A DNA stretch of 64,000 nt from a virus. The translations under genes were made by a program, and so were the position numbers. Each line of letters opens with the position of its first letter. The stretch's first letter is position 1. The stretch is from the IMG/VR virus record IMGVR_UViG_3300045988_172855; one strand, written 5' to 3'. Below, one piece after another: positions 5,995 through 51,486 of this stretch. The notes under the pieces are model-generated. The model saw only the letters and a list, made by a program, of their open reading frames with translations. It was not told the origin of the DNA and did no database searches.

Positions 5995-6006
5995 AATAAC
6001 ACTGTT

Positions 6007-6570
6007 TTATGATTTTGACATGATCATTTTAATGATCTCATCTTTCTTTTTATTTTTTAAATCTTTTTCTTCGAAACCACCGCCTTCTTCTGTCATTCCC
6101 ATTTCAATTAATTGTTTGACAGTCAAAGTATTGAGTTCGTTGAACAACTCATCGTCAATATCTTCATCACCTTTTTCTGCTTTTTCGGTTTCTATTTCTT
6201 TATCATCTTTCTTTTCTTCTTTAGAAGGAGAAATACCTTTTTGTAAATCTTCAACAGCTTTTTTCCAAGATTTAATTTCTTCATCTTTTTTGTCAAGCTC
6301 GACTTTTTGAGATTCAATGATATTCTTCAAACGATTGATCTCGTTTTTAAACTCTTCATTACCTTCAGAAACCTCTTGTCTCAATTTACTTTCAAGAGAA
6401 GTTTTGTATTCAGGTTCATCGCCTTCTTTATAAATATTAGGGAGTTTGCGATCAACGAGCTCTTGATACAATTCTTCAGAAATATCTGCATTTCCATTTA
6501 TAAAATGAATTACTCCACCATTTAATTTAATTTTTTGAGAGCTATACACTCTACTTCTTACTTTTACCAT
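6007..6570 (-). CDS. acidic coiled-coil protein downstream of capsid gene
   Basis: The track start at 6576 is TTG; the first ATG is at 6570. Central Glu/Lys-rich coiled coil. The C-terminal LTVKQLIEMG...KDEIIKMI resembles a SAP/Rho_N-like helix pair. Confidence 0.4.
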   Translation of the reverse strand: MVKVRSRVYSSQKIKLNGGVIHFINGNADISEELYQELVDRKLPNIYKEGDEPEYKTSLESKLRQEVSEGNEEFKNEINRLKNIIESQKVELDKKDEEIKSWKKAVEDLQKGISPSKEEKKDDKEIETEKAEKGDEDIDDELFNELNTLTVKQLIEMGMTEEGGGFEEKDLKNKKKDEIIKMIMSKS

Positions 6571-6596
6571 AATCAATTTGTTTTAGGTTTTCAAAA

Positions 6597-6636
6597 AGAG
6601 AAAGGAGAGGAGTTTATGATCTCTCCTCCCCTTTCT
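6597..6636 (-). terminator. hairpin after major capsid gene
   Basis: Purine/pyrimidine arms AGAGAAAGGAGAGGAG / CTCTCCTCCCCTTTCT give about 12 bp of pairing with one mismatch. On the - strand it is followed by CTTTTTG. Confidence 0.55.
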
Positions 6637-6656
6637 TTAGTTGTTTTTATTTGTTT

Positions 6657-8177
6657 TTAAACAAGACCTTCTTCACCGATATTCACGATACGAACAATCT
6701 TAGCAGGCTGATACAATACCGGAGTACCGTAATTCAAAATTGCAAATCTACGAGAAGGAGCTGTAATAGCAAAATCCATCTTCATAGTATCAGCAAACTG
6801 CAAATATTCGTTAATCTGATTATCATTGTAGTAAATCAATGCAGATTTTGTACCTGCAATGATACGATTGCGGTCACGAACACAATTAGCAGCAGCACCA
6901 TCCCATCCACTAGCCATTTGAGAAGCAGGAACTTCAAAGATAGGATAATATTCTGTTGTATTGTTAAGCGCAGCATCTTTCTTTGTACGATAAATTACGA
7001 AGCAAGTAGCTGCATAAGCACCACCAACACCGGCAGTAAATCCAAATTCAACTGAATCAGTTGCTGCAACAGCTTGAGCACCTCCTGAAGTAATATTCAA
7101 AGGAGCAGATTCACCGTAACGGTTCTTAGCAGTAACCAAATAACCGTAAGTACCTGCATGACGACCGAAGTTTGTCTTAGTGTCATTATTGTTTACTTTA
7201 ATAGCAGTTCCGACAACTGGAATAACCGGAGCTTTAGGTGAAGTTGCTTGTTTTCCTACAGTGATCGGTTTACGTTCATCAAAGAAACGGTCGTTTTTGA
7301 TATTGATCTTACCAAACTGAGTAGTAACATCATTTACACTCTGACCCATTGTTGCACCGGTTACAGAAGCAGCCAAACCTACAATAACACGTTTTGATTC
7401 GTGGAACAATTTAACGTAATTGTTAAATACAATCGGGTTAGAAATGATGCGATCAATATAACCGTTATACACGTTAACAACAACGTTAGCTGCATCCTGA
7501 ATCAAATTGTCATTCAAAACCTGATTCTGAGCATCAATAACAGCCGGAGAATTGAAATAATTATCAAGTAACTGTTCTGAAGTCTTACCTTCTGCAGTAC
7601 CTCCATCCATTTCGTTTACACCAAGCATGTGTTGACGGAATACGCCATCAAACTGTTCAGGGACACAAGTAGAGTCTGCATCAACCAAACGAGCATCCAA
7701 AATAGTTTGTAACAAAATAGTCTTATTCTCAACTTCTTTGGTGTACATATTCATACCACCAGCCAATCTAGCGAGCATTGCAGGATGAGTAACCTGACCT
7801 GTAACACCCATAAATTTGGTGATGATTGACTTACGTCTGTACTGAGAATCGGTTTCTTCCGGAGTTTCACCTTCAGTATTAAAGATACCAACTTCTTCAC
7901 CATACTTATACAACTGATTATACTGATGTACTGTATTGTCGATCTTATGTTTCGGCATTTCCATCAAGTAAACCAACTGATTTAAGCGGTTACCCAAGAT
8001 CTTTAATGTAGAGTCGAGTGATTCAACTTTCAGACCACCACCATTGTTGATCTGATTGTTATATTGCATACCGGTCTGAAGACCAGCTTCCATTGCTTTC
8101 AAAATGTCTTTTGCGGAAATTTCATCCAACAAGTTCGCTCCTGAAGCATCGTTAGTATTGTAATTATACAGATCCAT
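6657..8177 (-). CDS. putative major capsid protein
   Basis: 506 aa, directly after the protease- and scaffold-like genes and followed by an attenuator hairpin. The call rests on position and size. Confidence 0.6.
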   Translation of the reverse strand: MDLYNYNTNDASGANLLDEISAKDILKAMEAGLQTGMQYNNQINNGGGLKVESLDSTLKILGNRLNQLVYLMEMPKHKIDNTVHQYNQLYKYGEEVGIFNTEGETPEETDSQYRRKSIITKFMGVTGQVTHPAMLARLAGGMNMYTKEVENKTILLQTILDARLVDADSTCVPEQFDGVFRQHMLGVNEMDGGTAEGKTSEQLLDNYFNSPAVIDAQNQVLNDNLIQDAANVVVNVYNGYIDRIISNPIVFNNYVKLFHESKRVIVGLAASVTGATMGQSVNDVTTQFGKINIKNDRFFDERKPITVGKQATSPKAPVIPVVGTAIKVNNNDTKTNFGRHAGTYGYLVTAKNRYGESAPLNITSGGAQAVAATDSVEFGFTAGVGGAYAATCFVIYRTKKDAALNNTTEYYPIFEVPASQMASGWDGAAANCVRDRNRIIAGTKSALIYYNDNQINEYLQFADTMKMDFAITAPSRRFAILNYGTPVLYQPAKIVRIVNIGEEGLV

Positions 8178-8212
8178 AATTTATTTAGTTTTTAGTTTTC
8201 TCCGAATTCTTA

Positions 8213-8875
8213 TTATTTGCACAATTTAATATCGCATTTATCATACATATATTGAGCGAGTTCTTGACCAACGGTTTCAGCTTCCGGATTTGTCAAATAC
8301 GCCAACATATCACCTTCCATTGATTTCTGTAAAGTTTCAGACATCTGATCGTAAGCCTTTTCAATTGCCTTTACAACCAACGGACGTTGAGAAATAATAT
8401 TCATCTCATATTTATTATTCTCGTCTTTAGCGATCTGCATTGATTTCTGAATAGCATTTACATTTTCCAATCCAGCAGAACGGAAACTCGGCGTCTGTCC
8501 GCCAATTTTATCAATCTTATCACTCAATACATCCAAAGTTTCAGCCATCTTCTCCATAATAGGAGCAAATACGCCCATAGATTTAGCAAAGGTTTCTTCT
8601 ACAGCTTTTTTGATGCCTTCAGCATCACGATCTTCTGCAGTATCTTTTTCATCGTCCTTTACTTTTTCTTCTTTCTTAACAGCTTCTTTTTCGAGTTTAT
8701 CGATATCTTTTTCCTGCTTTGTTTCAGATTCGTGATCACCTGCAGCGGCAGCGTCTTCACTCTTCTCGATTTTGATATCGCCTTTTTCAATACTTTTTGC
8801 GATATAATCTTCAGTGAAACCCATAGCTAACATGGATTTAACTATCGCGTTGTCTTTGTAGTCTTCAAACTTCAT
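8213..8875 (-). CDS. putative scaffolding protein
   Basis: 220 aa, strongly acidic and Lys-rich helical sequence (EKEAVKKEEKVKDDEKD...), located between the protease-like and capsid genes. Confidence 0.55.
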   Translation of the reverse strand: MKFEDYKDNAIVKSMLAMGFTEDYIAKSIEKGDIKIEKSEDAAAAGDHESETKQEKDIDKLEKEAVKKEEKVKDDEKDTAEDRDAEGIKKAVEETFAKSMGVFAPIMEKMAETLDVLSDKIDKIGGQTPSFRSAGLENVNAIQKSMQIAKDENNKYEMNIISQRPLVVKAIEKAYDQMSETLQKSMEGDMLAYLTNPEAETVGQELAQYMYDKCDIKLCK

Positions 8876-8935
8876 AATTACTGAATTTTATTTGTTTATG
8901 TAAAAATAGAACCAAAATTTTACTTATCAAATTAA

Positions 8936-9715
8936 TTAACGAAAATTTTGCAAGTAGTCCCATAAAATTTTCGAAGAAATGTGACCCTCCATATAACTTT
9001 TATACAATTCTTTAAAGTCGTCACTCTCTACTCCTTCTGTCGGAAATGCTTTCAAAACAAAATTTTTATCAATAGAAAGAAGATATCCATTCTTTTCCAT
9101 TTCTAAAAGAATATTAGTTTGTTTAAAACTAACGCTATCGCTTTCAGAACAATCAATATAATCCTGTTTCTGAATACCCTTAACTATATCAGCATAAGTA
9201 TTTGCATTAACAGGAGTCATTGTCATTGCTACATTTGTAATTAATGCTTTTGTAATTTTTTTCGGATTCTTTTTATCTCTTTCTAATGCCTTACCTTCAA
9301 TACTAAAACCAGGTTTACGATTTGTTCCCGATTCTTGCATTTCTAACGCTTTATCATAAAAAGCTCTAGCTTCAGGAGATTTTTTCCACAATTGACACTT
9401 GACAAAAAATTTATTGTCTTTGACTTTAGCATCTAAAGGGGCTCCTATCCAAAATCGAGACTTGTTTATCGGACTACGCGAAGTAAGATGATCTAGATTT
9501 ATCAATCCGTGTTTCAAAAAACGATCAATAATAAAACCATTTGGTTCCATTGATTCTTCTTCTGAATCTTCGGACGCATCGGAAGCCAAACCCTCAAAAA
9601 TCATTCTTTCGTACCGCTTATCGTCTCCTACTGGATAATCAAGCGGATTGAATTTAGAAGATTTTTCAAGATTGGCTTCTGTGAAAAAATTAAACTTAGC
9701 ATCTATATCAAACAT
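8936..9715 (-). CDS. putative prohead maturation protease
   Basis: 259 aa upstream of the scaffold and capsid genes. Segments GFSIEGK...NVAMTMTPVN resemble prohead protease families. Not verified by any search. Confidence 0.45.
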   Translation of the reverse strand: MFDIDAKFNFFTEANLEKSSKFNPLDYPVGDDKRYERMIFEGLASDASEDSEEESMEPNGFIIDRFLKHGLINLDHLTSRSPINKSRFWIGAPLDAKVKDNKFFVKCQLWKKSPEARAFYDKALEMQESGTNRKPGFSIEGKALERDKKNPKKITKALITNVAMTMTPVNANTYADIVKGIQKQDYIDCSESDSVSFKQTNILLEMEKNGYLLSIDKNFVLKAFPTEGVESDDFKELYKSYMEGHISSKILWDYLQNFR

Positions 9716-10565
9716 CCTTTATATGTTCCATTGTCAACGAATTTACGAAATTATCAATCAATTTATCTATTTCTCGATACTTTCTGACTTGCTTCCAATC
9801 TTCAATATCGACTTCCTTATGAATCCCCATTAATGCTCCAAATAAAGCTGCATTTGTATCCGTATCAAATCCTAAATTCACTACGTCACAAAGGTCTTCT
9901 TTTAAGGTAGAACTCTTTGTTCTCAATTTCAAATAATTATCTAAAATCAAGTTATATGTATTAATAACATCTCCTCGATTTTGATAACTATCAACCGAAA
10001 AATCGAACTTGATATTTTCTTGCGGTAAAGCTCTCAACAATTTTTCAAGTAAGCAACAATAATTACCACCAAACTTAAAACAATTAGGATTATTATGAGT
10101 GAATAAGCTAAAAAAGTTGAATAAACTCATAGTCTCTGAAGCTACGAACTCCTTTTTCGTAGATCTATAAATTGCAACAGGAAGAGCATAAAACATTGCA
10201 CCGTTTCCCATCGAATCTGTTCTCGGACAACCATTCCTCATAATAGAAGATGATGTTTGCGATCCTATATCGAATAATCCTTCTCCTGCATTGAAACCTT
10301 TATTATGATACCAATCCTTTAGATTATCTCTCATTTTATTAAAAACATCCATCATATTATTCGTCTTAATAGAAAGTGCATCTATAAGACATAACAGAAT
10401 AGATGTATCGTCAGACCAAGTGCCAATCGGTTGATTATGATATCCTCCTTTTGAAAATCCGACGCAATTAAATTTGGTCGGATTTTGAAATTCAAAAGGA
10501 ACTCCTAAAGCATCGCCAATTATATAAGCTCTGATACTATTCTTTATCTTTTCTATCGTTTTCAT
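9708..10565 (-). CDS. ADP-ribosylglycohydrolase (ARH/DraG family)
   Basis: N-terminal IIGDALGVPFEF, WSDDTS, and C-terminal GFDTDTNAALFGALMG are the hallmark ARH metal-binding motifs. Confidence 0.85.
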   Translation of the reverse strand: MKTIEKIKNSIRAYIIGDALGVPFEFQNPTKFNCVGFSKGGYHNQPIGTWSDDTSILLCLIDALSIKTNNMMDVFNKMRDNLKDWYHNKGFNAGEGLFDIGSQTSSSIMRNGCPRTDSMGNGAMFYALPVAIYRSTKKEFVASETMSLFNFFSLFTHNNPNCFKFGGNYCCLLEKLLRALPQENIKFDFSVDSYQNRGDVINTYNLILDNYLKLRTKSSTLKEDLCDVVNLGFDTDTNAALFGALMGIHKEVDIEDWKQVRKYREIDKLIDNFVNSLTMEHIKDV

Positions 10566-10710
10566 CCGTTTCCGAATTTAAGCTGTTTAAAATTAGTCTT
10601 ACAGACTCTGTTTTTAACTTCTCTACTTCTTCTTTAGAAGGTTCACTAACAACTATTGATATTGATTCTCCATCTTCTTCCCATCTAGGATGTACTTTTT
10701 TCTTTGCCAT
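10537..10710 (-). CDS. small ORF (57 aa) overlapping ARH start
   Basis: Own translation: MAKKKVHPRWEEDGESISIVV.... It starts at the first ATG downstream of promoter 10746-10777 and overlaps the ARH start by 29 nt. Just below the track size cut-off. Confidence 0.3.
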   Translation of the reverse strand: MAKKKVHPRWEEDGESISIVVSEPSKEEVEKLKTESVRLILNSLNSETDENDRKDKE

Positions 10711-10745
10711 AATTTTAATTTTTTAATTACTATTCTTTTGAATGC

Positions 10746-10777
10746 CTAAAGATACACCTTTTATTTCATTCGGACAA
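10746..10777 (-). promoter_or_regulatory. Bacteroidota-type promoter (TTG-N20-TATCTTTAG)
   Basis: The - strand reads TTGTCCGAATGAAATAAAAGGTGTATCTTTAGGCAT. Same consensus as about 17 other copies in the window. Confidence 0.6.
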
Positions 10778-10783
10778 CAATTA

Positions 10784-13300
10784 TTAAACAATTTCGACAA
10801 CAATAGAATTTGTTCCTCTTGCAAGTACTTTATACTTTAATCCAGCTTGAGCTAAATATTCACTTTCGACAATATTATCTACATTCATAACCGGATCTCC
10901 TTTCTTAGCTAACAAAGTTAAATGAAGATCTGATCCAAAATCAGTTTCATGTTTCATTCCAAACGATACAAAAGATTTATCTTCAATTACTTGACCTACT
11001 TTTGCATTAAGCCATGTACTAAGATTATCTCCATTCCCTCTAATTTCCAATCTTCTGTTTAATACCATATTTCGCTTCAGAGGATTTTGTTCAATAGCTT
11101 CTTTAATAAGACCTATTCTCGTTTTAGTACTCTCTATTTTTTCTTCTGAAAAGACCTTTGATTTTGGTGATTCTGTTAGAATATCTCTTATTGCCATATA
11201 ACCTGAACCTGTATAATTTTTTATCGCTTTACGTTGATCATCTGTCCATTTGGTCGACGTTTCTTTGGCGTCTTTTTGATATATCTCGAAAAACTTTTCT
11301 TTATCTTCAAATGAATTATTCTTATTAATATACAAATAATCTTCTTTATTGTAATTATGATAAACCAATCCATTTACAACCGGAGCATATCCTCGTGTAA
11401 TTAACATTGCGTTAATTGCTTTTTTATTTTTATCATTAGAAAGACCATATTGCTCTATTATTTCACCAAAATTATAATCATCGATAAAGCCAAATATCTT
11501 TGATTTTAAATCGGAAGTTTTAGAAGACAAATCCTTAGTAAGATATTTATCTGCATCGGATTTCATTTTCTCAACCTCTTCTTTAGCGTAAAGGTTAGAT
11601 AATTCCGATCTCTTTTCATTCCAATCATAAAATTGCTTTACTGTTTCAAAATTCTTACCTTCAGCAAAAGATAATTTCTCTTCTTTCTTTTCTGTTTTCG
11701 TAGATTGTTGTTTATTCAACTCTTCTTTAATGCGTTTCTTAAAATCAACCAACGATTCATAAGGCTTCGACTCTAATTTAAATCCAGGAGAAGTTGCTTT
11801 ATACTGATTATCGCCTTTCATTTTAATAACGACAGTCTTACCGTCTTGTTTAACATAGGTTTGAGTGATTTTCTTAAACCCAGTCATATCGCTTATTTTT
11901 TTATCAATTTCGCCGGTTATTTCTTGTTTTAACTTATCTAATTTATTATCTATAGATTCTTTCTCACTCTCTTTCTTTTTCTTAAATTCTTGAAGCTTTT
12001 CCTGAATTTTATCCAAAACATCCTGATCTAATTCGAGTTCACCTTTTTCTTGAGCTTCAAGAAGATTTTTATAAGCATCTTCTACAGTAAATTGTTTATT
12101 CGATTTATCGTCAGAATCTTGTTGCTCATTTCTTTTATTTAATTCTTCTTGAGCAACTTTCTTTAATTCGGAGTTGGCTTCAGGATCTTTTATAGCCGCT
12201 TTCAATTGTTCGTCTGTTGCAGATGTAGCTTGTTTAGCCAAAATTTCTGTAGAAGATTGTTTTGAAGTCGACTCTTCTTCATTCTTCTTTCCTCCCTTAG
12301 CTTTTGGCTTCCAACCCTTTTCAGTTTTAATATATAATTTACCGCCCCACGTCTTTTCTGTCCCAATAGGTGAACCTTTCTTCGCTTTTTCTATAATTTC
12401 CATAGATTTTGTAATCGTCTGATTATAAATTTTCCACGAATTCAATTTCGCATACTTCATCGCCTCTTTTCTATCTTCTTTCCACTTTTTAACTTCTTCT
12501 GCAGTTCCTTGAGGCTTTTCTTTATTGTAAACGTATTCCCAATCAAAAGATTTCTTATCTTTTTGAGGATATACTGTGACATCTCCGATTGTAAAAGATT
12601 GTTTCTGAACCTCTTTATTCTTCTGTGCTTTTTCTTGTCTTTTATTTTCTAAATAGGATTTGTATTCACTTTTAGTGCGATTAAAATCCATCCACTTTTC
12701 TACAAAAGAATAAAGTAACGCATATTCACTTTCTTCTATCCCTATTTGTTCCAATACTTTTAATATACCCTCTCTTTTAGGTAAATCCAATAGTTCAAAA
12801 TTATTAGACTCTTTTATAATTGTCTCATAATTTTTCTTAGACGAAAGTCTTTCGACATCAGAAATAATCTTTTTTAAATCTTCGGTTTTATAACCGTAAG
12901 CTGTGTTAATTGATATATCTGAAGAACCGTCTCCGTAAAGATTAAAATCAATGCCTAAATCAGTTTCTTTATCCTGATTCTTCTTTGTATGATTCGAAAT
13001 TCTTATATCAAAGTCGCTATTTTTCTTTTTAAATTTAAAATAAGAAGAAGCTGTTGATTTACTTTCAATATATTCATATCTTATCCCCTCATTCTCTAAC
13101 CACTTCTTAAACGACTTAGCGATTTGCTTTGGATTGACATTAGTCATTTCTATAACATCCTGCTTCTTATTGATGATTTTGGAACGACTTTCTATCTCCT
13201 TTTCTTCATAAACGTATCGAAAACCACCTTTCCCATCCGGCTCTTTTCTAATGTATTTATGAAAAATAGCTTTCTCTAAAAGATCTTTGATTTTCTCCAT
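10784..13300 (-). CDS. large virion-module protein with C-terminal ADP-ribosyltransferase (Alt/C3-like R-S-ExE) domain
   Basis: The C-terminus has KNYTGSGYMAIRDIL, NRRLEIRG, KSFVSFG (S-x-S) and VESEYL (ExE, codons 10859-10867). The track start at 13399 runs through the upstream hairpin, so ATG 13300 (MEKIKDLLEK) was used. Confidence 0.75.
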   Translation of the reverse strand: MEKIKDLLEKAIFHKYIRKEPDGKGGFRYVYEEKEIESRSKIINKKQDVIEMTNVNPKQIAKSFKKWLENEGIRYEYIESKSTASSYFKFKKKNSDFDIRISNHTKKNQDKETDLGIDFNLYGDGSSDISINTAYGYKTEDLKKIISDVERLSSKKNYETIIKESNNFELLDLPKREGILKVLEQIGIEESEYALLYSFVEKWMDFNRTKSEYKSYLENKRQEKAQKNKEVQKQSFTIGDVTVYPQKDKKSFDWEYVYNKEKPQGTAEEVKKWKEDRKEAMKYAKLNSWKIYNQTITKSMEIIEKAKKGSPIGTEKTWGGKLYIKTEKGWKPKAKGGKKNEEESTSKQSSTEILAKQATSATDEQLKAAIKDPEANSELKKVAQEELNKRNEQQDSDDKSNKQFTVEDAYKNLLEAQEKGELELDQDVLDKIQEKLQEFKKKKESEKESIDNKLDKLKQEITGEIDKKISDMTGFKKITQTYVKQDGKTVVIKMKGDNQYKATSPGFKLESKPYESLVDFKKRIKEELNKQQSTKTEKKEEKLSFAEGKNFETVKQFYDWNEKRSELSNLYAKEEVEKMKSDADKYLTKDLSSKTSDLKSKIFGFIDDYNFGEIIEQYGLSNDKNKKAINAMLITRGYAPVVNGLVYHNYNKEDYLYINKNNSFEDKEKFFEIYQKDAKETSTKWTDDQRKAIKNYTGSGYMAIRDILTESPKSKVFSEEKIESTKTRIGLIKEAIEQNPLKRNMVLNRRLEIRGNGDNLSTWLNAKVGQVIEDKSFVSFGMKHETDFGSDLHLTLLAKKGDPVMNVDNIVESEYLAQAGLKYKVLARGTNSIVVEIV

Positions 13301-13314
13301 AATAATATAAAATA

Positions 13315-13333
13315 GGAGGAGGATATCTCCTCC
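13315..13333 (-). terminator. short hairpin after Nudix-protein gene
   Basis: GGAGGA..TCCTCC 6-bp stem, followed on the - strand by TATTTTATATTATT. Confidence 0.35.
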
Positions 13334-13338
13334 ATTAA

Positions 13339-15483
13339 TTAATGTAACTGTAAACGATATTTGGTTTGTTTCAATGTAGCAAGGAAATCTTCTGTCCAAG
13401 ACTTTTCACCAACATAATCAGTATGATCATCAATTTTACCATAGAACTTCTTGGTACGATCTATGATCAAATCAATCAAACCAATAGGATCGTTGACTTC
13501 AATTTCTTCACCATTTACAGAACCGTCTTCAAATCGACCAAATTCACTTTGACCTGCTTCCATGATCTTGTCTTCGTAATCAGAAAGTTCCTCAATCAAA
13601 TCATCGAGATAAACGTGTTTGGAATTATCTAACTCTCCCCAATGTACATTTTTTGATCTTGTTTTCGCACCTTCAAGAAAATTAGCATAATCAACGAAAA
13701 CGTTATACATAGCATCTTTAGCTTTTTGAACACCATCGTCTAAAGACGGATCTCTATGAATCTCGTCGTGTATCTCGTCAATACCCCATGCTTTTTCAAT
13801 CTCCTCGTTCTTAGTTTCAATCGAAGCAATATCTAATTTACCTGAATCTTTCATTTCATCAACCAATGACTTAAACATCTCTGCTTGATCTAAATCATTA
13901 AAATTGATTAATATATTGAAACCTTGTACATCGTCTTCAACTTTCTGAGATTTTTCAATATTCTCAGTCTTCTGAAGACTATACATGCGAATATTGCCCT
14001 TAAAATCCCAAGTTTGCTCACCATTTTCTTCTGTAGACAATGTTATAGAAAATTTCCTTCCTAAGTTAGATACCTTTTGTAACGTTCCTAAGAAATCAAA
14101 TAATTTATCACCATTACCACCGTCATTATCGCTATAACCAAAACTTGCATTTCCGTATGTATATTTTTTAGGATTTTCAGTAGCATCGACAACTCTCTCT
14201 ACATACTCAACCTTTTTAAAAGTAATTGCCTTTTCGATACCATCTCCGTCAGGTTTCTTTGTCTCACCCTCAAGACTTTCCTTACAAATTGCATTCACGT
14301 CATTACAATCCATAGTTTTTTCAACCTCGTTCCATGATTCAGGTAATTCGTTTGTTGCACCAAGATCTTTTGCTCTGCGTTTCAAATAAGCAATTACATC
14401 TGATTTAGGAAGGTCTGAATTACCAACCAACTTGATTGCGTTTTTCAGATCAGAACGATTGCGAACAGGAAAACGACCGCCTACCATAGCTTTTCCTTCT
14501 TTCTCAAGTTTTGCACGCTCTTTCTCAGAAATATAAGATTTTGCTATACAAGATAATTCAGGCTTATTGACTTCTTTTTCAATTTCCTCTTTATGTTTTT
14601 TACAAAAATCTTCAAAAATCTTTTCATTGATCTCACCTCGAGCAAATGCCTTTGTTATAATCTGAATAGGTCCTTCCGGACACTCTCTACCAAGAATCTT
14701 TTTGATATTTTCTTTCATATCAAAAATAAAATCGTAGTCATCTAACTCTGTTCTAGTATCGATCCAAGTACTTCCAACTTCTTCTTCGCTATCGACAATA
14801 ATCTGTATAGGCGATTCATCGTCAACGTGACCTAAGAAATAATGAATCTCGTAATCTTTGCCTTTTGCAACACCTGCTTCAATCAAAAGATCTTCGGGGA
14901 TCTCAATACCTGTTTCTTCAAACAATTCTCTTGCGGCTGCTTCGAGAAAACTTTCTCCTGGATCAACGTGACCGCCAGGTATACACCATTGTTGTGTACT
15001 TGCTCCGTATTCACCAGCTCTTTGTAAAATCAAAAGTTTATCACCTCTAAACAACAATACATCGGCATAGCGTACTTTACCAGTCTTAGCCTTGATTATA
15101 TCATTATAAACTGATTTCGAAATATTCCCTTTCTTTAATTCGTTCTTTGCTGAATAGATGTTATAAATATCATTCAAAGTATCACTTATCTCTTTATCGG
15201 CAGATAATTTTGATAACGATTTAAAAATCTGTTCTCTTTTTCTTTGAACAATAGCAATATTTTTAGCATGTTCTTCTAAAAATTCATTATAACGTTTTTC
15301 TGCATCTACTCGCTCCTTCTCATCTAAAGTTGAAAAACTTTTAGCGATTGAACTTTTTTCAGCAAAAAGAGTTGATAAATCACTTATTTCGTTCGCAATC
15401 TCGAAAGATTTCTTCAACAAACTTCTATATTCAGCAACTTTCTCTGAATTAGATTGTAAATTAAATAATTTCTTAATATTCAT
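13339..15483 (-). CDS. 714-aa Nudix-domain protein (virion module)
   Basis: Perfect Nudix box GHVDPGESFLEAAARELFEETGI (14905-14976 also covers the Gly residue before it; fits GX5EX7REUXEEXGU). N-terminal coiled coil. The C-terminal KNVHWGELDN..LDDLIEEL..D.IMEAG is weakly Dps/ferritin-like. Confidence 0.8.
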   Translation of the reverse strand: MNIKKLFNLQSNSEKVAEYRSLLKKSFEIANEISDLSTLFAEKSSIAKSFSTLDEKERVDAEKRYNEFLEEHAKNIAIVQRKREQIFKSLSKLSADKEISDTLNDIYNIYSAKNELKKGNISKSVYNDIIKAKTGKVRYADVLLFRGDKLLILQRAGEYGASTQQWCIPGGHVDPGESFLEAAARELFEETGIEIPEDLLIEAGVAKGKDYEIHYFLGHVDDESPIQIIVDSEEEVGSTWIDTRTELDDYDFIFDMKENIKKILGRECPEGPIQIITKAFARGEINEKIFEDFCKKHKEEIEKEVNKPELSCIAKSYISEKERAKLEKEGKAMVGGRFPVRNRSDLKNAIKLVGNSDLPKSDVIAYLKRRAKDLGATNELPESWNEVEKTMDCNDVNAICKESLEGETKKPDGDGIEKAITFKKVEYVERVVDATENPKKYTYGNASFGYSDNDGGNGDKLFDFLGTLQKVSNLGRKFSITLSTEENGEQTWDFKGNIRMYSLQKTENIEKSQKVEDDVQGFNILINFNDLDQAEMFKSLVDEMKDSGKLDIASIETKNEEIEKAWGIDEIHDEIHRDPSLDDGVQKAKDAMYNVFVDYANFLEGAKTRSKNVHWGELDNSKHVYLDDLIEELSDYEDKIMEAGQSEFGRFEDGSVNGEEIEVNDPIGLIDLIIDRTKKFYGKIDDHTDYVGEKSWTEDFLATLKQTKYRLQLH

Positions 15484-15514
15484 AGCTATTCATATTTTGG
15501 CCTAAATATACGGA

Positions 15515-21484: not shown

Positions 21485-22396
21485 TTATTTTTTGTTAAAT
21501 CCAATCAATTTACTCCGATCTCTAGGATCATCGCTTCCGATTTTTTGACCACTTGCAACACGTTGTTCATGTTCTTTTCGAAGTTGTTCGCCTATTTTGC
21601 GAGCTTCCTCGATTTCTCTAGCGAATTTATTTTTCTTTGGTTGTTTTTCTGAATATGTATATTTTTTATCACCGAATTCCTTAAGAAGCTCATAATATTT
21701 TTCATTCCCCTTTTTATTGACATCTCCGGAATTTTTAAGATATCCCTCCTTAGCAAGTTTAGGAGAAGTTCCTCTTTTCATTCTTGCGGCATATAAATCT
21801 CTGAAAAGACGATATCTTTCGAATTTATCTTTATCATGAGTAACAGTAACTAATTCACCGTCCTCATCCAACTCTTCTTTTTCAGACTCCTTCTTACCTT
21901 CATCTTTCTTCGTCGAAGAACCTTTGGCTTTTAATCTCCAACCTTTTCCGGTTTTAACGTAAAGTTTGCCGCCATAAGTCTTTTCTGTTCCGATAGGAAG
22001 AGCTTTTGCTTTTTCAATTGCATCTTCGTCAGCACAATTGATACCAGCGATTCCTTTCAATATATTCAAAGAAGTCTCTTTAAACTTACGACACATTTTA
22101 TCGTTAATAGATTTGAAGATACCATCAGGTATTTCTACTTCTTCAGTTTGATTTTCTCTATAATAAACAGTTCTTTTGACTAAATCGTTACCAACAATAA
22201 TAGCAGGTGTTAATGATGCAAAATCGGCTGCAGCACACGATTTCTCAAATTCGTCAATTTCATTCTTTTCAGACTTTTCTAAGAGATCCTTACAAAAGGC
22301 ATTTACAGTTTCTGCAGAAAATACCTCGTAATTATGCTTTTCAACAAAAGCATTGAATTCATCTTGCGTATATTCCAATGGAGTATTTTTAATCAT
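21485..22396 (-). CDS. hypothetical Lys/Glu-rich protein sharing a ~30-aa motif with the ART protein
   Basis: EKAKALPIGTEKTYGGKLYVKTGKGWRLKAKG (the core from PIG to KAKG maps to 21920-21997), compared with EKAKKGSPIGTEKTWGGKLYIKTEKGWKPKAKG in 10784..13300. Confidence 0.5.
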   Translation of the reverse strand: MIKNTPLEYTQDEFNAFVEKHNYEVFSAETVNAFCKDLLEKSEKNEIDEFEKSCAAADFASLTPAIIVGNDLVKRTVYYRENQTEEVEIPDGIFKSINDKMCRKFKETSLNILKGIAGINCADEDAIEKAKALPIGTEKTYGGKLYVKTGKGWRLKAKGSSTKKDEGKKESEKEELDEDGELVTVTHDKDKFERYRLFRDLYAARMKRGTSPKLAKEGYLKNSGDVNKKGNEKYYELLKEFGDKKYTYSEKQPKKNKFAREIEEARKIGEQLRKEHEQRVASGQKIGSDDPRDRSKLIGFNKK

Positions 22397-26556: not shown

Positions 26557-26602
26557 ATCTTCTGTTGTTTTAATCATTAATACTCTTGTTCCTTTTGGAT
26601 GC

Positions 26603-26634
26603 CTAAAGATACACCTATTAATAAAACGGACCAA
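26603..26634 (-). promoter_or_regulatory. Bacteroidota-type promoter (TTG-N20-TATCTTTAG)
   Basis: The - strand reads TTGGTCCGTTTTATTAATAGGTGTATCTTTAGGCATCCAAAAGG. The leader is nearly identical to that of the 32153 copy. Confidence 0.65.
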
Positions 26635-32105: not shown

Positions 32106-32152
32106 TGTCTTTATTTTTAATCGTTAATACTCTTGTTGTTCCTTTTGGATGC

Positions 32153-32184
32153 CTAAAGATACACCTTTGTGACATGTGTAGCAA
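32153..32184 (-). promoter_or_regulatory. Bacteroidota-type promoter (TTG-N20-TATCTTTAG)
   Basis: The - strand reads TTGCTACACATGTCACAAAGGTGTATCTTTAGGCATCCAAAAGGAAC. Confidence 0.65.
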
Positions 32185-49545: not shown

Positions 49546-51486
49546 TCAGCAGAGGAATTTCTCTTTGAACTCCGTGGCTGTAAAGATCGGAATTCCTAGA
49601 CTCTCTGCCTTCAATTCCTTTGTCGAATTGCTTCCCTTTTCTTTTACCACCACGCACGTTGTTTTCTTACTCACCGAAGATCCTATCTTATGACCCATTT
49701 CAGTAAGTTTTCTCTCCCAATCTTTATTTCTGAATCCGGTAAAAACAATTGTCATCTGACCATCAAACGATTTCTCTTCAAGACCGTAATATGTAATAGG
49801 AATTGTAAACAAATCTGATGTCCATGACATCCACCAATCCATAATCCCCATGATGAAAGCGTAAGCTGTATTAAAACCCACTCCTTCTACACATCCTTCA
49901 ATCTCAGATGCCCAATTCTCATTACACTCCTTGGCAAAAGAAGATATGTCTTCGTAAGTATATAGTTTCAATCCATTGAGAATCTTTTGACACGTTTTCT
50001 CAGCTATAACTCCTTTAAAAAAATTATAAGCTGTCATCATTTTTGCAAAATTAGTACCTTTCTTTCTCAGCTCTTCAAATTGTTTCGAAAGTACTTTTGC
50101 CGCAACATTACCAAGACCTTCAATGTTTTTGAGTTCATTTTCATTCAATCTAATAATGGATGTAGGATCTTTATATCCTGCATTAAAAATCTTCTTGATA
50201 GTTGGTTCTCGAAACTCTTTAAAGTCAAGTATAGAGAAAAAATAAACACATCTAGATAATAATACGCCTTCACATTGCGAATTCGTACACATCAAGTCTA
50301 CATTATTCGAATCCCACACTAATTCTTTACCACATATTGGACAAACTGTAGGAGTCTTTGAATATGTATTTGTATACGAAACTGTTTTAAGATGTTTTGG
50401 AATAACGTCTCCTGAACGACATATCACTACTCTTGCTCCCGGAACAATATTGTTCTCAACGATATAACGAGCATTATATGCAGTACATTTTGATACAGTC
50501 GCGCCACACAATTCAATCGGTTCAATCTCAACAACAGGAGCTAATCTTCCGTCCTTAGAAATTTGCCAACGAACCTCTTTTACAACAGTTTCTTCTCTTT
50601 CTGACCATTCAGGATTTTTATAAGCAATAGCATATCTAGGATTATTATTCGCAAGTCGTCCTAATTCTCTTCTTTTCTTTGCATTGTTTACATCAATCAC
50701 AAGACCGTCACATTTATAACCTTTTGTCAATTTTTCAAATAAACTATTCATAAGATTGACAAAACCGTCTTCGTCTTCAAGTGATTTTACTGTAATTGTT
50801 GAGAAATTAACTCTACTTTGTTCGCAACTACACTCGTTTAAAATTTCGAGTTGCTTCTTCTTATCCCAATCCTCATTGTCACATCCATATCTTACATAAT
50901 TAACGTATTTTACAAACTCACTAACATTTGGTGAGTTGAGAAGACCTGCAACAGCATTTCTTGCAGATTTATATCCTGCTTCATCTTTGATTTTCAAAAA
51001 ATCTGCTGTTTTAAAAATCGCTTCACCGAATGAGAAAATCGGAAGTTCGTTGTCAAGAGATTGTGTATAAATTGCATTGTTTATACATTTTTCAAAATGT
51101 TCAGTACAATTTTGTCCAAATTCTCCATCACCACGAGTCCAAGCATTTCCAACTGTCTCTAATACACATAATGAAATCCCGTCATATTTAGGTGTAACAA
51201 TCAATTCATCTGTAGATTTTAAATCAATAGATTTGATCCATCTCAAAATCTCTTCGTGCGACTTCACCTTCTCAAGTGAGAACATAGGAATCGGAAGTTT
51301 CTCCTTTCTATCTTCAGACACTTTGTCTTGTACACCTTTCTTAAACCATTCAGAATCCGGATTTAATTCTTGTAATTGATCAACAAGTTGATCAAATTCT
51401 TGATCCGTTACTAATGGATTACCTTTTCGATACGCATCATTATATCTACGTATCAAACATTCTAATTCTAAAACTTCTTTATCCAT
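49546..51486 (-). CDS. ligA: NAD-dependent DNA ligase
   Basis: Adenylation motif VTPKYDGISL, Zn finger CPICGKELVWDSNNVDLMCTNSQC, HhH region, and C-terminal BRCT-like FTGFRNKDWE... Confidence 0.9.
   Translation of the reverse strand: MDKEVLELECLIRRYNDAYRKGNPLVTDQEFDQLVDQLQELNPDSEWFKKGVQDKVSEDRKEKLPIPMFSLEKVKSHEEILRWIKSIDLKSTDELIVTPKYDGISLCVLETVGNAWTRGDGEFGQNCTEHFEKCINNAIYTQSLDNELPIFSFGEAIFKTADFLKIKDEAGYKSARNAVAGLLNSPNVSEFVKYVNYVRYGCDNEDWDKKKQLEILNECSCEQSRVNFSTITVKSLEDEDGFVNLMNSLFEKLTKGYKCDGLVIDVNNAKKRRELGRLANNNPRYAIAYKNPEWSEREETVVKEVRWQISKDGRLAPVVEIEPIELCGATVSKCTAYNARYIVENNIVPGARVVICRSGDVIPKHLKTVSYTNTYSKTPTVCPICGKELVWDSNNVDLMCTNSQCEGVLLSRCVYFFSILDFKEFREPTIKKIFNAGYKDPTSIIRLNENELKNIEGLGNVAAKVLSKQFEELRKKGTNFAKMMTAYNFFKGVIAEKTCQKILNGLKLYTYEDISSFAKECNENWASEIEGCVEGVGFNTAYAFIMGIMDWWMSWTSDLFTIPITYYGLEEKSFDGQMTIVFTGFRNKDWERKLTEMGHKIGSSVSKKTTCVVVKEKGSNSTKELKAESLGIPIFTATEFKEKFLC

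Follow-up and report, generated by a model that had tools for sequence, protein, structure and literature searches.

A predicted ADP-ribosyl-arginine hydrolase behind a capsid-module ADP-ribosyltransferase in an uncultured gut phage

Pairs of adjacent genes that encode an ADP-ribosyltransferase (ART) and a DraG-like ADP-ribosylhydrolase (ARH), the writer and the eraser of the same modification, are established for DraT/DraG, Tre1/Tri1 and Lmo0066/Lmo0067, and one phage pair has been predicted. DraT and DraG are a side-by-side pair for reversible arginine ADP-ribosylation, and the hydrolase carries the E-D-D and di-metal motifs of the superfamily. Tre1 of Serratia proteamaculans (6DRE/6DRH) is an arginine-modifying ART of the R-S-E type, and Tri1, the DraG-like ARH that reverses its modification, combines occlusion and eraser immunity (PMC8120803). 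Lmo0066 and Lmo0067 of Listeria monocytogenes (PDB 8ZA7, with 8za7_A described as 'ART-ARH type toxin effector-immunity protein pair') are likewise an adjacent writer and eraser, the latter with a DraG-like fold, and are encoded in a bacterial locus within a type VII secretion region (PMC5417603). In phages, ART-ARG toxin-antitoxin pairs (ARG, ADP-ribosylglycohydrolase) have been predicted in Aeromonas phages, with Aeh1 gp142 as an example, as have ARTs and NUDIX proteins that are packaged in the head (Iyer et al. 2022, PMC9503650). Here we analyze an ARH gene that lies directly behind an ART-encoding gene in the capsid module of a 64,000-nucleotide stretch of viral DNA (IMG/VR record IMGVR_UViG_3300045988_172855; hereafter, the window), and assess the possibility that this ARH is the eraser dedicated to the phage's own ART.

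The ARH matches PF03747 (E 7.8e-28, 98.4 bits against a cut-off of 26.2) and the PHROG family 'ADP-ribosylglycohydrolase' (phrog_6572, E 1e-35). All the residues that coordinate the two metals and carry out E-D-D catalysis in DraG-like enzymes are present, and the respective motifs are invariant or nearly so in 20 diverse homologues and kept in 55/55 phage copies. The best sequence matches in the PDB are Lmo0067 (8za7_A, E 9e-18), Tri1 (6dre_A) and DraG. The AlphaFold2 (AF2) model of the protein (mean pLDDT 91.7) is an all-alpha fold that superposes on the solved members of the family; in a Foldseek search, the top matches, with a TM-score of 0.83, were 8za7_A (24% identity) and Tri1 (6dre/6drh), that is, the two solved ART-toxin/ARH-immunity pairs, followed by DraG (0.78-0.80), with the serine-specific ARH3 at only about 0.65. 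The ARH is an equivalog of neither Tri1 nor DraG: it scores 60 bits against the Tri1 model NF041672 (cut-off 490), which is the best-matching NCBIfam model yet below its cut-off, and 38.7 bits against the DraG model TIGR02662 (cut-off 337). The alignment to Tri1 begins at residue 67-68 of the latter, and the phage protein has no N-terminal extension of its own. By these similarities, we predict that the protein is an active ADP-ribosyl-arginine hydrolase of the DraG/Tri1 type.

The gene immediately upstream (on the minus strand like ARH; ART stop at 10784, ARH start at 10565) encodes a large polyvalent protein with a C-terminal ART domain. The ORF is open from a TTG at 13399 (10784-13399, 871 codons), and the ATG at 13300 is the likely start. 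A scan of the full 871-aa sequence against Pfam and PHROG gave no match, and the ART was revealed only when the C-terminal 258 aa were scanned in isolation (PF03496, E 1.7e-9, 37.8 bits against a cut-off of 23.4). The catalytic R, S-x-S and ExE are invariant in the alignment of relatives and are retained in 58/58 ART copies from ARH-bearing loci (some contigs counted twice); ExE is the signature of arginine-specific transferases (PMC8120803). ART relatives were gathered by a pattern scan of viral contigs, and a homologue search listed at least 8 close relatives. With the ART fragment as a single sequence, a PDB search yielded chance matches only, and a profile search matched VIP2, C2-I, Lmo0066 (8ZA7 chain B, E 1.3e-5), Certhrax and SpvB. 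Because the ARH matches chain A of 8ZA7 and the ART profile matches chain B, both halves of the phage pair are related to one solved toxin-immunity complex. An earlier note on this DNA, made from the letters alone, had recognized the ARH by two of its motifs, the neighbouring ART gene and a 57-codon ORF overlapping the ARH start, and had invoked the writer/eraser logic of Tre1/Tri1; all of this holds, and the comparison is apt given that the solved pairs are the closest by fold.

The polyvalent gene is located between the portal and the protease genes. Head-packaged ARTs and polyvalent proteins have been described in other phages (PMC5512222, PMC9503650), and the ART-bearing protein of the window is presumably packaged in the head and injected as well, to judge by this analogy. 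Its homologues in relatives, which match it over the middle and the C-terminus, are polyvalent proteins that bear PBECR1, and many relatives have the PBECR1 nuclease domain, a linker and the ART within one gene. In the window, the N-terminal region of about 330 aa (12311-13300, minus strand) stands where the relatives have PBECR1 and has no Pfam, PHROG or PDB match. By sequence comparison, this looks like module swapping ahead of a shared linker (IIEKAKKGSPIGTEKTWGGK...). In several assemblies (L002-L005, L011/L047), the polyvalent gene is broken into 2-3 ORFs at positions that vary by metagenome assembly, with the ART-domain ORF intact in every case; these splits could be homopolymer assembly errors or real frameshifts. 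One contig (L016 3176-6817, the same contig as L065) encodes two tandem ART-bearing proteins, the second of which has a segment similar to the 57-codon ORF (ORF57) fused in-frame to the polyvalent linker at its N-terminus; in this contig, ARH is preceded by an unrelated 60-aa ORF. A weak hairpin ahead of the polyvalent gene of the window (13315-13333) is possibly an attenuator of transcription into the ART gene or a terminator.

The gene order around ARH is fixed. All phage loci that carry ARH (57-100% identity; 29 in the first set and further ones, to a total of about 35 gut-phage contigs or loci) have the arrangement NUDIX, ART polyvalent gene, promoter, small ORF, ARH, protease, and none of them contains an ARH without an ART immediately upstream. 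ARH is the last element of a cassette of about 3.6 kb (about 9716-13338) between the genes for a NUDIX head protein and the prohead protease. The sister phage MT835500 (L001), an unannotated human-faecal phage contig with a major capsid protein (MCP) 71% identical to that of the window, has the order terminase, portal, g316, g148, NUDIX, a 128-nt spacer, protease, scaffold and capsid. None of ART, ORF57 and ARH is present between NUDIX and protease, so the three genes act as a single cassette in a variable position. The cassette evolves faster than the flanking protease and MCP genes, like conflict genes: the relatives share with the window 84-93% identity in MCP and 72-87% in the protease, compared to 57-72% in ARH, 40-71% in ART and, in ORF57, about 30% or about 90%. 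The divergence of ORF57 goes in step with that of ART, with 91% identity where ART is 71% identical and about 30% where ART is 42% identical. The base composition of the cassette gives no sign of a foreign origin (30.9% GC compared to 32.6% in the window).

Bacteroidota sigma-A promoters have the consensus -33 TTTG/-7 TAnnTTTG, with the two boxes spaced by 19-21 nt. The site upstream of ORF57 (10746-10777) fits this type, with a -7 box that ends in A where the consensus ends in G, and the pattern TTG-N20-TATCTTTA(G) is highly over-represented and intergenic; we regard the site as a putative sigma-A-type promoter, from which the transcript would be expected to start a few bases downstream of the -7 box. 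The exact motif, TTG-N20-TATCTTTAG, occurs in 5 copies in the window, all on the coding strand, compared to 0.01 expected, and with at most 1 mismatch there are 13 copies compared to 0.92 expected. Within the structural block, between 0.7 and 22.4 kb, the site is the only exact copy; weaker -7-like boxes lie near 15505, 8908 and 2899. The promoter core AAAAGGTGTATCTTTAG is invariant in relatives although the flanking intergenic DNA has diverged, and therefore appears to be under selection.

The ARH stop overlaps the protease ATG (ATGTTTGA, 9708-9715), and across 15 scored loci, the window included, this junction ranges from -13 to +14 nt. There is no terminator between the promoter and the capsid gene; the next one comes after MCP, and an equivalent hairpin follows the capsid gene in the scored relatives, with stem sequences that differ yet still pair. 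Because of the overlapping junction and the lack of a terminator before the end of MCP, the promoter is best read, from these signals, as the head of an operon that comprises ORF57, ARH, protease, scaffold and MCP and ends at the terminator, rather than as private to ARH. Furthermore, the protease ATG of MT835500 is preceded, at a distance of 40 nt, by a TAnnTTTG-type box within the spacer (TATTTTTG), so that the promoter of the window is located where a head-operon promoter is expected. In relatives that have ART and lack ARH, the ART gene is followed by a promoter-like TATATCTTTA or TATATTTAG, a non-homologous ORF of 54-65 aa, and then the protease. Between the small ORF and the protease, some of these relatives encode a 364-608-aa protein that consists of diverged InlB B-repeats (Flg_new_2, E 5e-34), reduced to a remnant in L074; this is possibly a capsid decoration protein. 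An Rfam scan of positions 6000-14000 found nothing.

The exact promoter reported in the earlier note is real. Its reading as the ARH's own promoter is not supported, given the operon and the promoter-like site ahead of the protease in ARH-less phages, and the claim that the gene at 21485..22396 is preceded by the same consensus does not hold, because its site reads TTG-N20-TACTTTTAG, with two mismatches in the -7 box. The label 'early-type' is plausible on circumstantial grounds. The motif class is concentrated in the half of the window with replication genes and small ORFs, where it precedes about a dozen genes, and the sites at 26603 and 32153 precede strings of tiny ORFs and have the downstream GGCATyCAAAAGrAA in common with the 10754 copy. 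The identity of the three promoters (10730-10754, 26587-26611 and 32137-32161, minus strand) extends past the -7 box as GGTGTATCTTTAGGCATyCAAAAGrAA, which suggests a common initially transcribed or 5'-untranslated element. Upstream, the motif falls into two extended subclasses, AAAGGTG and AAAGTAG.

ORF57, to judge by its conservation, is a real gene linked to the ART/ARH module. The family consists of 76 protein clusters of about 50-100 aa, in none of which a Pfam domain was found. The AF2 model (pLDDT 70, low confidence) consists of an extended N-terminus with a conserved RW motif and one long helix (26-56). In Bacteroidales integrative islands, the ORF ahead of ARH (119 aa) also overlaps the ARH start in the +1 frame, and its C-terminal half is homologous to ORF57 (hidden Markov model match, 3e-20); the N-terminal half of this ORF shares 48% identity with a domain that is fused in-frame to ARH in protein P0020, and a motif similar to this domain is visible at the N-terminus of P0040-type ARHs. 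When ORF57 was compared by profile (hhalign) to the linker in the fused ARH P0020, there was no significant match (probability 1.8%). ORF57 is probably a binding partner of ARH or ART. A programmed +1 frameshift that would fuse ORF57 to ARH was considered and is unsupported despite the conserved frame relation, because a separate ATG for ARH stands where a conserved helix begins, because the ARH frame opens only 4 codons upstream of that ATG, and because the overlap varies from 23 to 32 nt and no conserved slippery site is visible. The coordinates of these and other features are given in the table.

Table. Features of the ART/ARH locus and its surroundings; positions are those of the window except where a locus of a relative is named.
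Feature	Position	Strand	Basis or remark
ARH gene, 285 aa, DraG/Tri1-like di-metal ADP-ribosylhydrolase (predicted)	9708-10565	-	PF03747, fold, motifs
ARH motif E25 in GDALGVPFEF	10488-10517	-	
ARH motif S51-D52-D53-T54	10401-10418	-	
ARH motif FD99IG	10263-10274	-	
ARH motif D234-T-D236-T237 in DTDTNA(ALFGALMG)	9849-9866	-	DTDTNA start
ORF57, 57 codons	10537-10710	-	29-nt overlap with ARH start, +1 frame
Promoter-like site	10746-10777	-	-33 TTG (10775-10777), 20-nt spacer, -7 box TATCTTTAG (10746-10754)
Polyvalent effector, ~838 aa from ATG at 13300	10784-13300	-	unrecognised N-terminal domain, low-complexity linker, C-terminal ART
ART domain	10826-11275	-	PF03496 match
ART catalytic R782 (NRR)	11051-11059	-	
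ART S809 (SFVSF)	10961-10975	-	
ART E845-x-E847 (ESEY)	10856-10867	-	
7-bp GC-rich hairpin with U-rich tail	13315-13333	-	between NUDIX stop and ART-gene ATG; z -1.9, weak
714-aa head-module protein, NUDIX and DUF5856	13339-15483	-	PF00293 E 3e-18; upstream border of the cassette
Prohead protease	8936-9715	-	phrog_1028 E 5e-37
Scaffold-like protein	8213-8875	-	position and composition; syntenic in all relatives
Major capsid protein	6657-8177	-	weak SU10_MCP match; tblastn
Intrinsic terminator, 14-bp stem then U-run	about 6593-6636	-	dG -22.7 kcal/mol, z -4.35
Structural block	0.7-22.4 kb	-	
Numerous small ORFs of unassigned function	23-45 kb		
Replication genes	45-63 kb	-	DNA polymerase, SbcCD, UvsX, helicases, NAD-dependent ligase, RNase H
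Post-ART region of ARH-less relatives	L070 7646-9666; L073 7646-8955; L074 7662-7826; L076 7750-7926		

We favor, with a probability of about 0.5, the interpretation that the ARH erases the arginine ADP-ribosylation produced by the phage's own ART and so confers immunity on the producing cell and/or resets the modification in time. As the cognate eraser, the ARH would be made together with the abundantly expressed head proteins and, because it is co-transcribed with these highly expressed genes, would be in excess over the newly made ART in the producing cell, where it would strip ADP-ribose from arginines modified by that ART. The packaged ART would then enter the next host without ARH. If the promoter is early, the ARH would also terminate the pulse of modification caused by the injected ART. 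Self-immunity against a packaged ART, the first of the two hypotheses in the earlier note, remains the best reading, although it is weakened by the ART-bearing relatives that lack ARH. Several observations weigh against the self-immunity interpretation. There are 5 distinct contigs with ART and without ARH (L070, L071, L073, L074 and L076), and a sixth case, L075/L077, where ART and protease are on separate loci at opposite ends of one contig. The ARTs of these relatives are found at the same position, have the R, S-x-S and ExE intact and are, by sequence, apparently active, so ARH is not obligatory for a packaged ART. T4 packages the ART Alt and is not known to have any eraser (PMC8120803). 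The nearest non-phage homologues of the ARH, at 44-50% identity, belong to the cargo of small integrative islands of Bacteroidales that also encode an integrase, HTH_17, a Phage_CRI replication initiator, T5orf172 and a lipoprotein, and no ART was found within 8 kb of the island ARHs, so this ARH subfamily can act without a cis-encoded writer. Finally, synteny alone, within one phage clade, is weak evidence of functional coupling. The pattern of co-inheritance is, then, that a phage ARH is always accompanied by an ART, and that either gene can be found without the other: ART in the ARH-less phages and ARH in the islands.

The same island ARHs and ARH-less phages would fit an eraser that acts in trans on foreign ARTs, such as those injected by competing phages of the same family, type VI secretion system (T6SS) effectors or protein-targeting ART defences of the host; the position of ARH beside the phage ART would then reflect a common cargo hot spot. 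Exact copies of the promoter consensus otherwise precede replication genes and strings of small ORFs, which fits such a role as well, and host ARH systems without an ART have been proposed to counter viral ARTs (PMC9503650). We nevertheless consider this explanation rather unlikely: the phage ARH never occurs without an ART immediately upstream and, by sequence identity, goes with one ART subfamily, the ARH-linked ARTs showing 40-100% identity and those of the ARH-less relatives 26-32%. Nor did PADLOC find a match for ARH, ORF57 or ART. The second hypothesis of the earlier note, that the ARH counters host defences of the DarT or CmdT type, is not supported, because the enzymes known to remove ADP-ribose linked to the bases of DNA or RNA are of the macrodomain, NADAR or PARG type, and those ARH-like enzymes that have been tested were inactive on it (PMC11833690, PMC11825919). 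Alternatively, the ARH could itself be a packaged or early effector that, possibly guided by ORF57, erases regulatory or defensive arginine ADP-ribosylation of the host on entry. Its gene lies in a locus of presumed packaged effectors (the NUDIX protein and the polyvalent ART), an ORF57-like segment forms the N-terminus of the second polyvalent ART in L016/L065, and island relatives have N-terminal extensions fused to ARH. The ARH is, however, a small separate protein outside the polyvalent polypeptide, has no packaging signal, and its packaging together with the writer would be self-defeating unless the targets differ; we find this explanation improbable.

A role in small-molecule metabolism, whereby the ARH and the NUDIX protein would degrade free ADP-ribose derivatives (O-acetyl-ADP-ribose, ADP-ribose-1''-phosphate, signalling nucleotides) or salvage NAD for the ligase, appears still more remote. 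It is suggested by the NUDIX gene two genes upstream of ARH, by the NAD-dependent DNA ligase gene (49546-51486) and by the hydrolysis of O-acetyl-ADP-ribose by ARH3-type enzymes (PMC9503650). However, NUDIX is present in relatives with or without ARH and is thus uncoupled from it; by fold, the ARH resembles Tri1, DraG and Lmo0067, which act on protein-arginine, and is distant from ARH3; and phage ARG domains have been argued to prefer macromolecular adducts (PMC9503650). A speculative elaboration, which we hold to be quite unlikely, is that ORF57 and ARH form a split, two-part immunity of the Tri1 kind, with an occluding peptide and an eraser, and that this module is traded by recombination with satellite-like islands, which hold near-identical pieces of the phage effector locus and may, as a defence against phages, disarm the injected phage ART via ARH. 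In that case, the distinction between self and non-self may be temporal, with the ART neutralised in the producer and freed by packaging and injection. The hints in this direction are the ARH without a Tri1-type extension, the predicted extended segment and helix of ORF57, and its divergence in step with ART; the non-homologous small ORF that ARH-less ART phages have in the same slot and that the ART-less sister phage lacks; and the islands, in which the domain of the upstream small ORF is fused to ARH and which carry a 3' fragment of the phage NUDIX gene, the polyvalent leader and an ORF57-family gene.

Bacteroidales islands (L042-L044, ~6087-8225; L006-L008; L034-L039, ~6300-10100) hold pieces of the effector locus of this phage clade. 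They encode an integrase, HTH_17/AlpA and Phage_CRI, and several adjoin a DHQ-synthase gene. The NUDIX 3'-end fragment is followed by a gene for a 274-353-aa protein with PBECR1 or MuF_C, whose leader (MSVEFQSGFDELMKARRASVGEIRV) and linker are near-identical to those of the phage polyvalent proteins, and then by a 143-aa ORF, which resembles PD-(D/E)xK by eye (no Pfam match), and the ORF57-family gene. Other island variants have an ORF57-like gene and 1-2 ARHs and no ART. These islands could be satellites or recombination partners of the phage.

The window comes from an uncultured Bacteroidota phage of the human gut, about 100 kb in size, as indicated by the relatives of its MCP and by near-identical contigs of 60-106 kb in IMG/VR and gut metagenomes. 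Apart from MT835500, the MCP is about 34% identical to those of Bacteroides phages DAC19-23 and a Chryseobacterium phage; tblastn matches include MCPs of Bacillus phages (SP-10, Nachito, YungSlug) and syntenic ORFs of Bacteroides phages. All long ORFs of the window are on the minus strand. The NAD-dependent DNA ligase, also on this strand (phrog_3869, E 2e-124), implies that the phage's own replication relies on NAD+. The 714-aa head-module protein, with NUDIX at residues 138-242 and DUF5856 at the C-terminus, is kept in all relatives, including those without ART and ARH, Bacteroides phage DAC19 and a Chryseobacterium phage, and is probably another packaged enzyme related to NAD or ADP-ribose.

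If the ARH is indeed the cognate eraser of a capsid-delivered ART, these Bacteroidota phages, which are abundant in the human gut, would show how a virus can carry an injected enzyme with a potential for self-harm: the producing cell would make the antidote, and only the toxin would be shipped, which would extend the effector/immunity logic of secretion systems to virions. The ART domain, the ARH and the 57-aa partner would be a tractable set for identifying the targets of phage ADP-ribosylation in Bacteroides. The presence of ARH and the putative partner gene in islands that share sequence with the effector locus points to an arms race or cargo exchange in the gut between phages and islands or satellites.

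Compared to the described systems, the phage pair differs from Lmo0066/Lmo0067 in its low sequence identity to them, in the small ORF and promoter that intervene between writer and eraser and are lacking in Listeria, and in the route of delivery, which is secretion for the bacterial pair and, presumably, the capsid for the phage pair. Tre1 is a T6SS effector, not phage cargo, and Tri1 has an N-terminal extension of about 65 residues that occludes the active site of the toxin and is missing in the phage ARH (PMC8120803); in its place, the phage has the separate 57-aa gene that overlaps the ARH start. DraT/DraG regulates nitrogenase and has no conflict function, and its transferase belongs to a different family. 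Among phages, Aeh1 gp142 is likewise an ARH beside an ART-fold protein and is 23-24% identical to the ARH of the window over the full length. Unlike in the window, the ARH neighbour (L078 3498-7852) follows gp142 and exceeds 1,099 aa, and its weak PARP-catalytic match (E 1.2e-5) falls slightly short of the Pfam cut-off, in agreement with the ART-ARG pair published for Aeromonas phages; the gene lies among small hypothetical genes, with no head genes in the 7.8 kb examined, in T4-like phages of Proteobacteria. T4 Alt and the polyvalent head-packaged ARTs (Iyer et al. 2017, PMC5512222) resemble the ART of the window in the R-S-E triad and the location in or near the head module, and both PBECR1, to which relatives fuse the ART, and MuF_C, which occurs in the island copies, are among the hub domains of such proteins. 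Neither T4 nor the polyvalent proteins described so far are known to have a cis-encoded eraser, whereas in the window ARH directly follows ART. What is new here is the different phage lineage and an arrangement in which a predicted eraser, accompanied by a small gene for a probable partner of its own, stands at the front of the capsid operon and follows a polyvalent ART.

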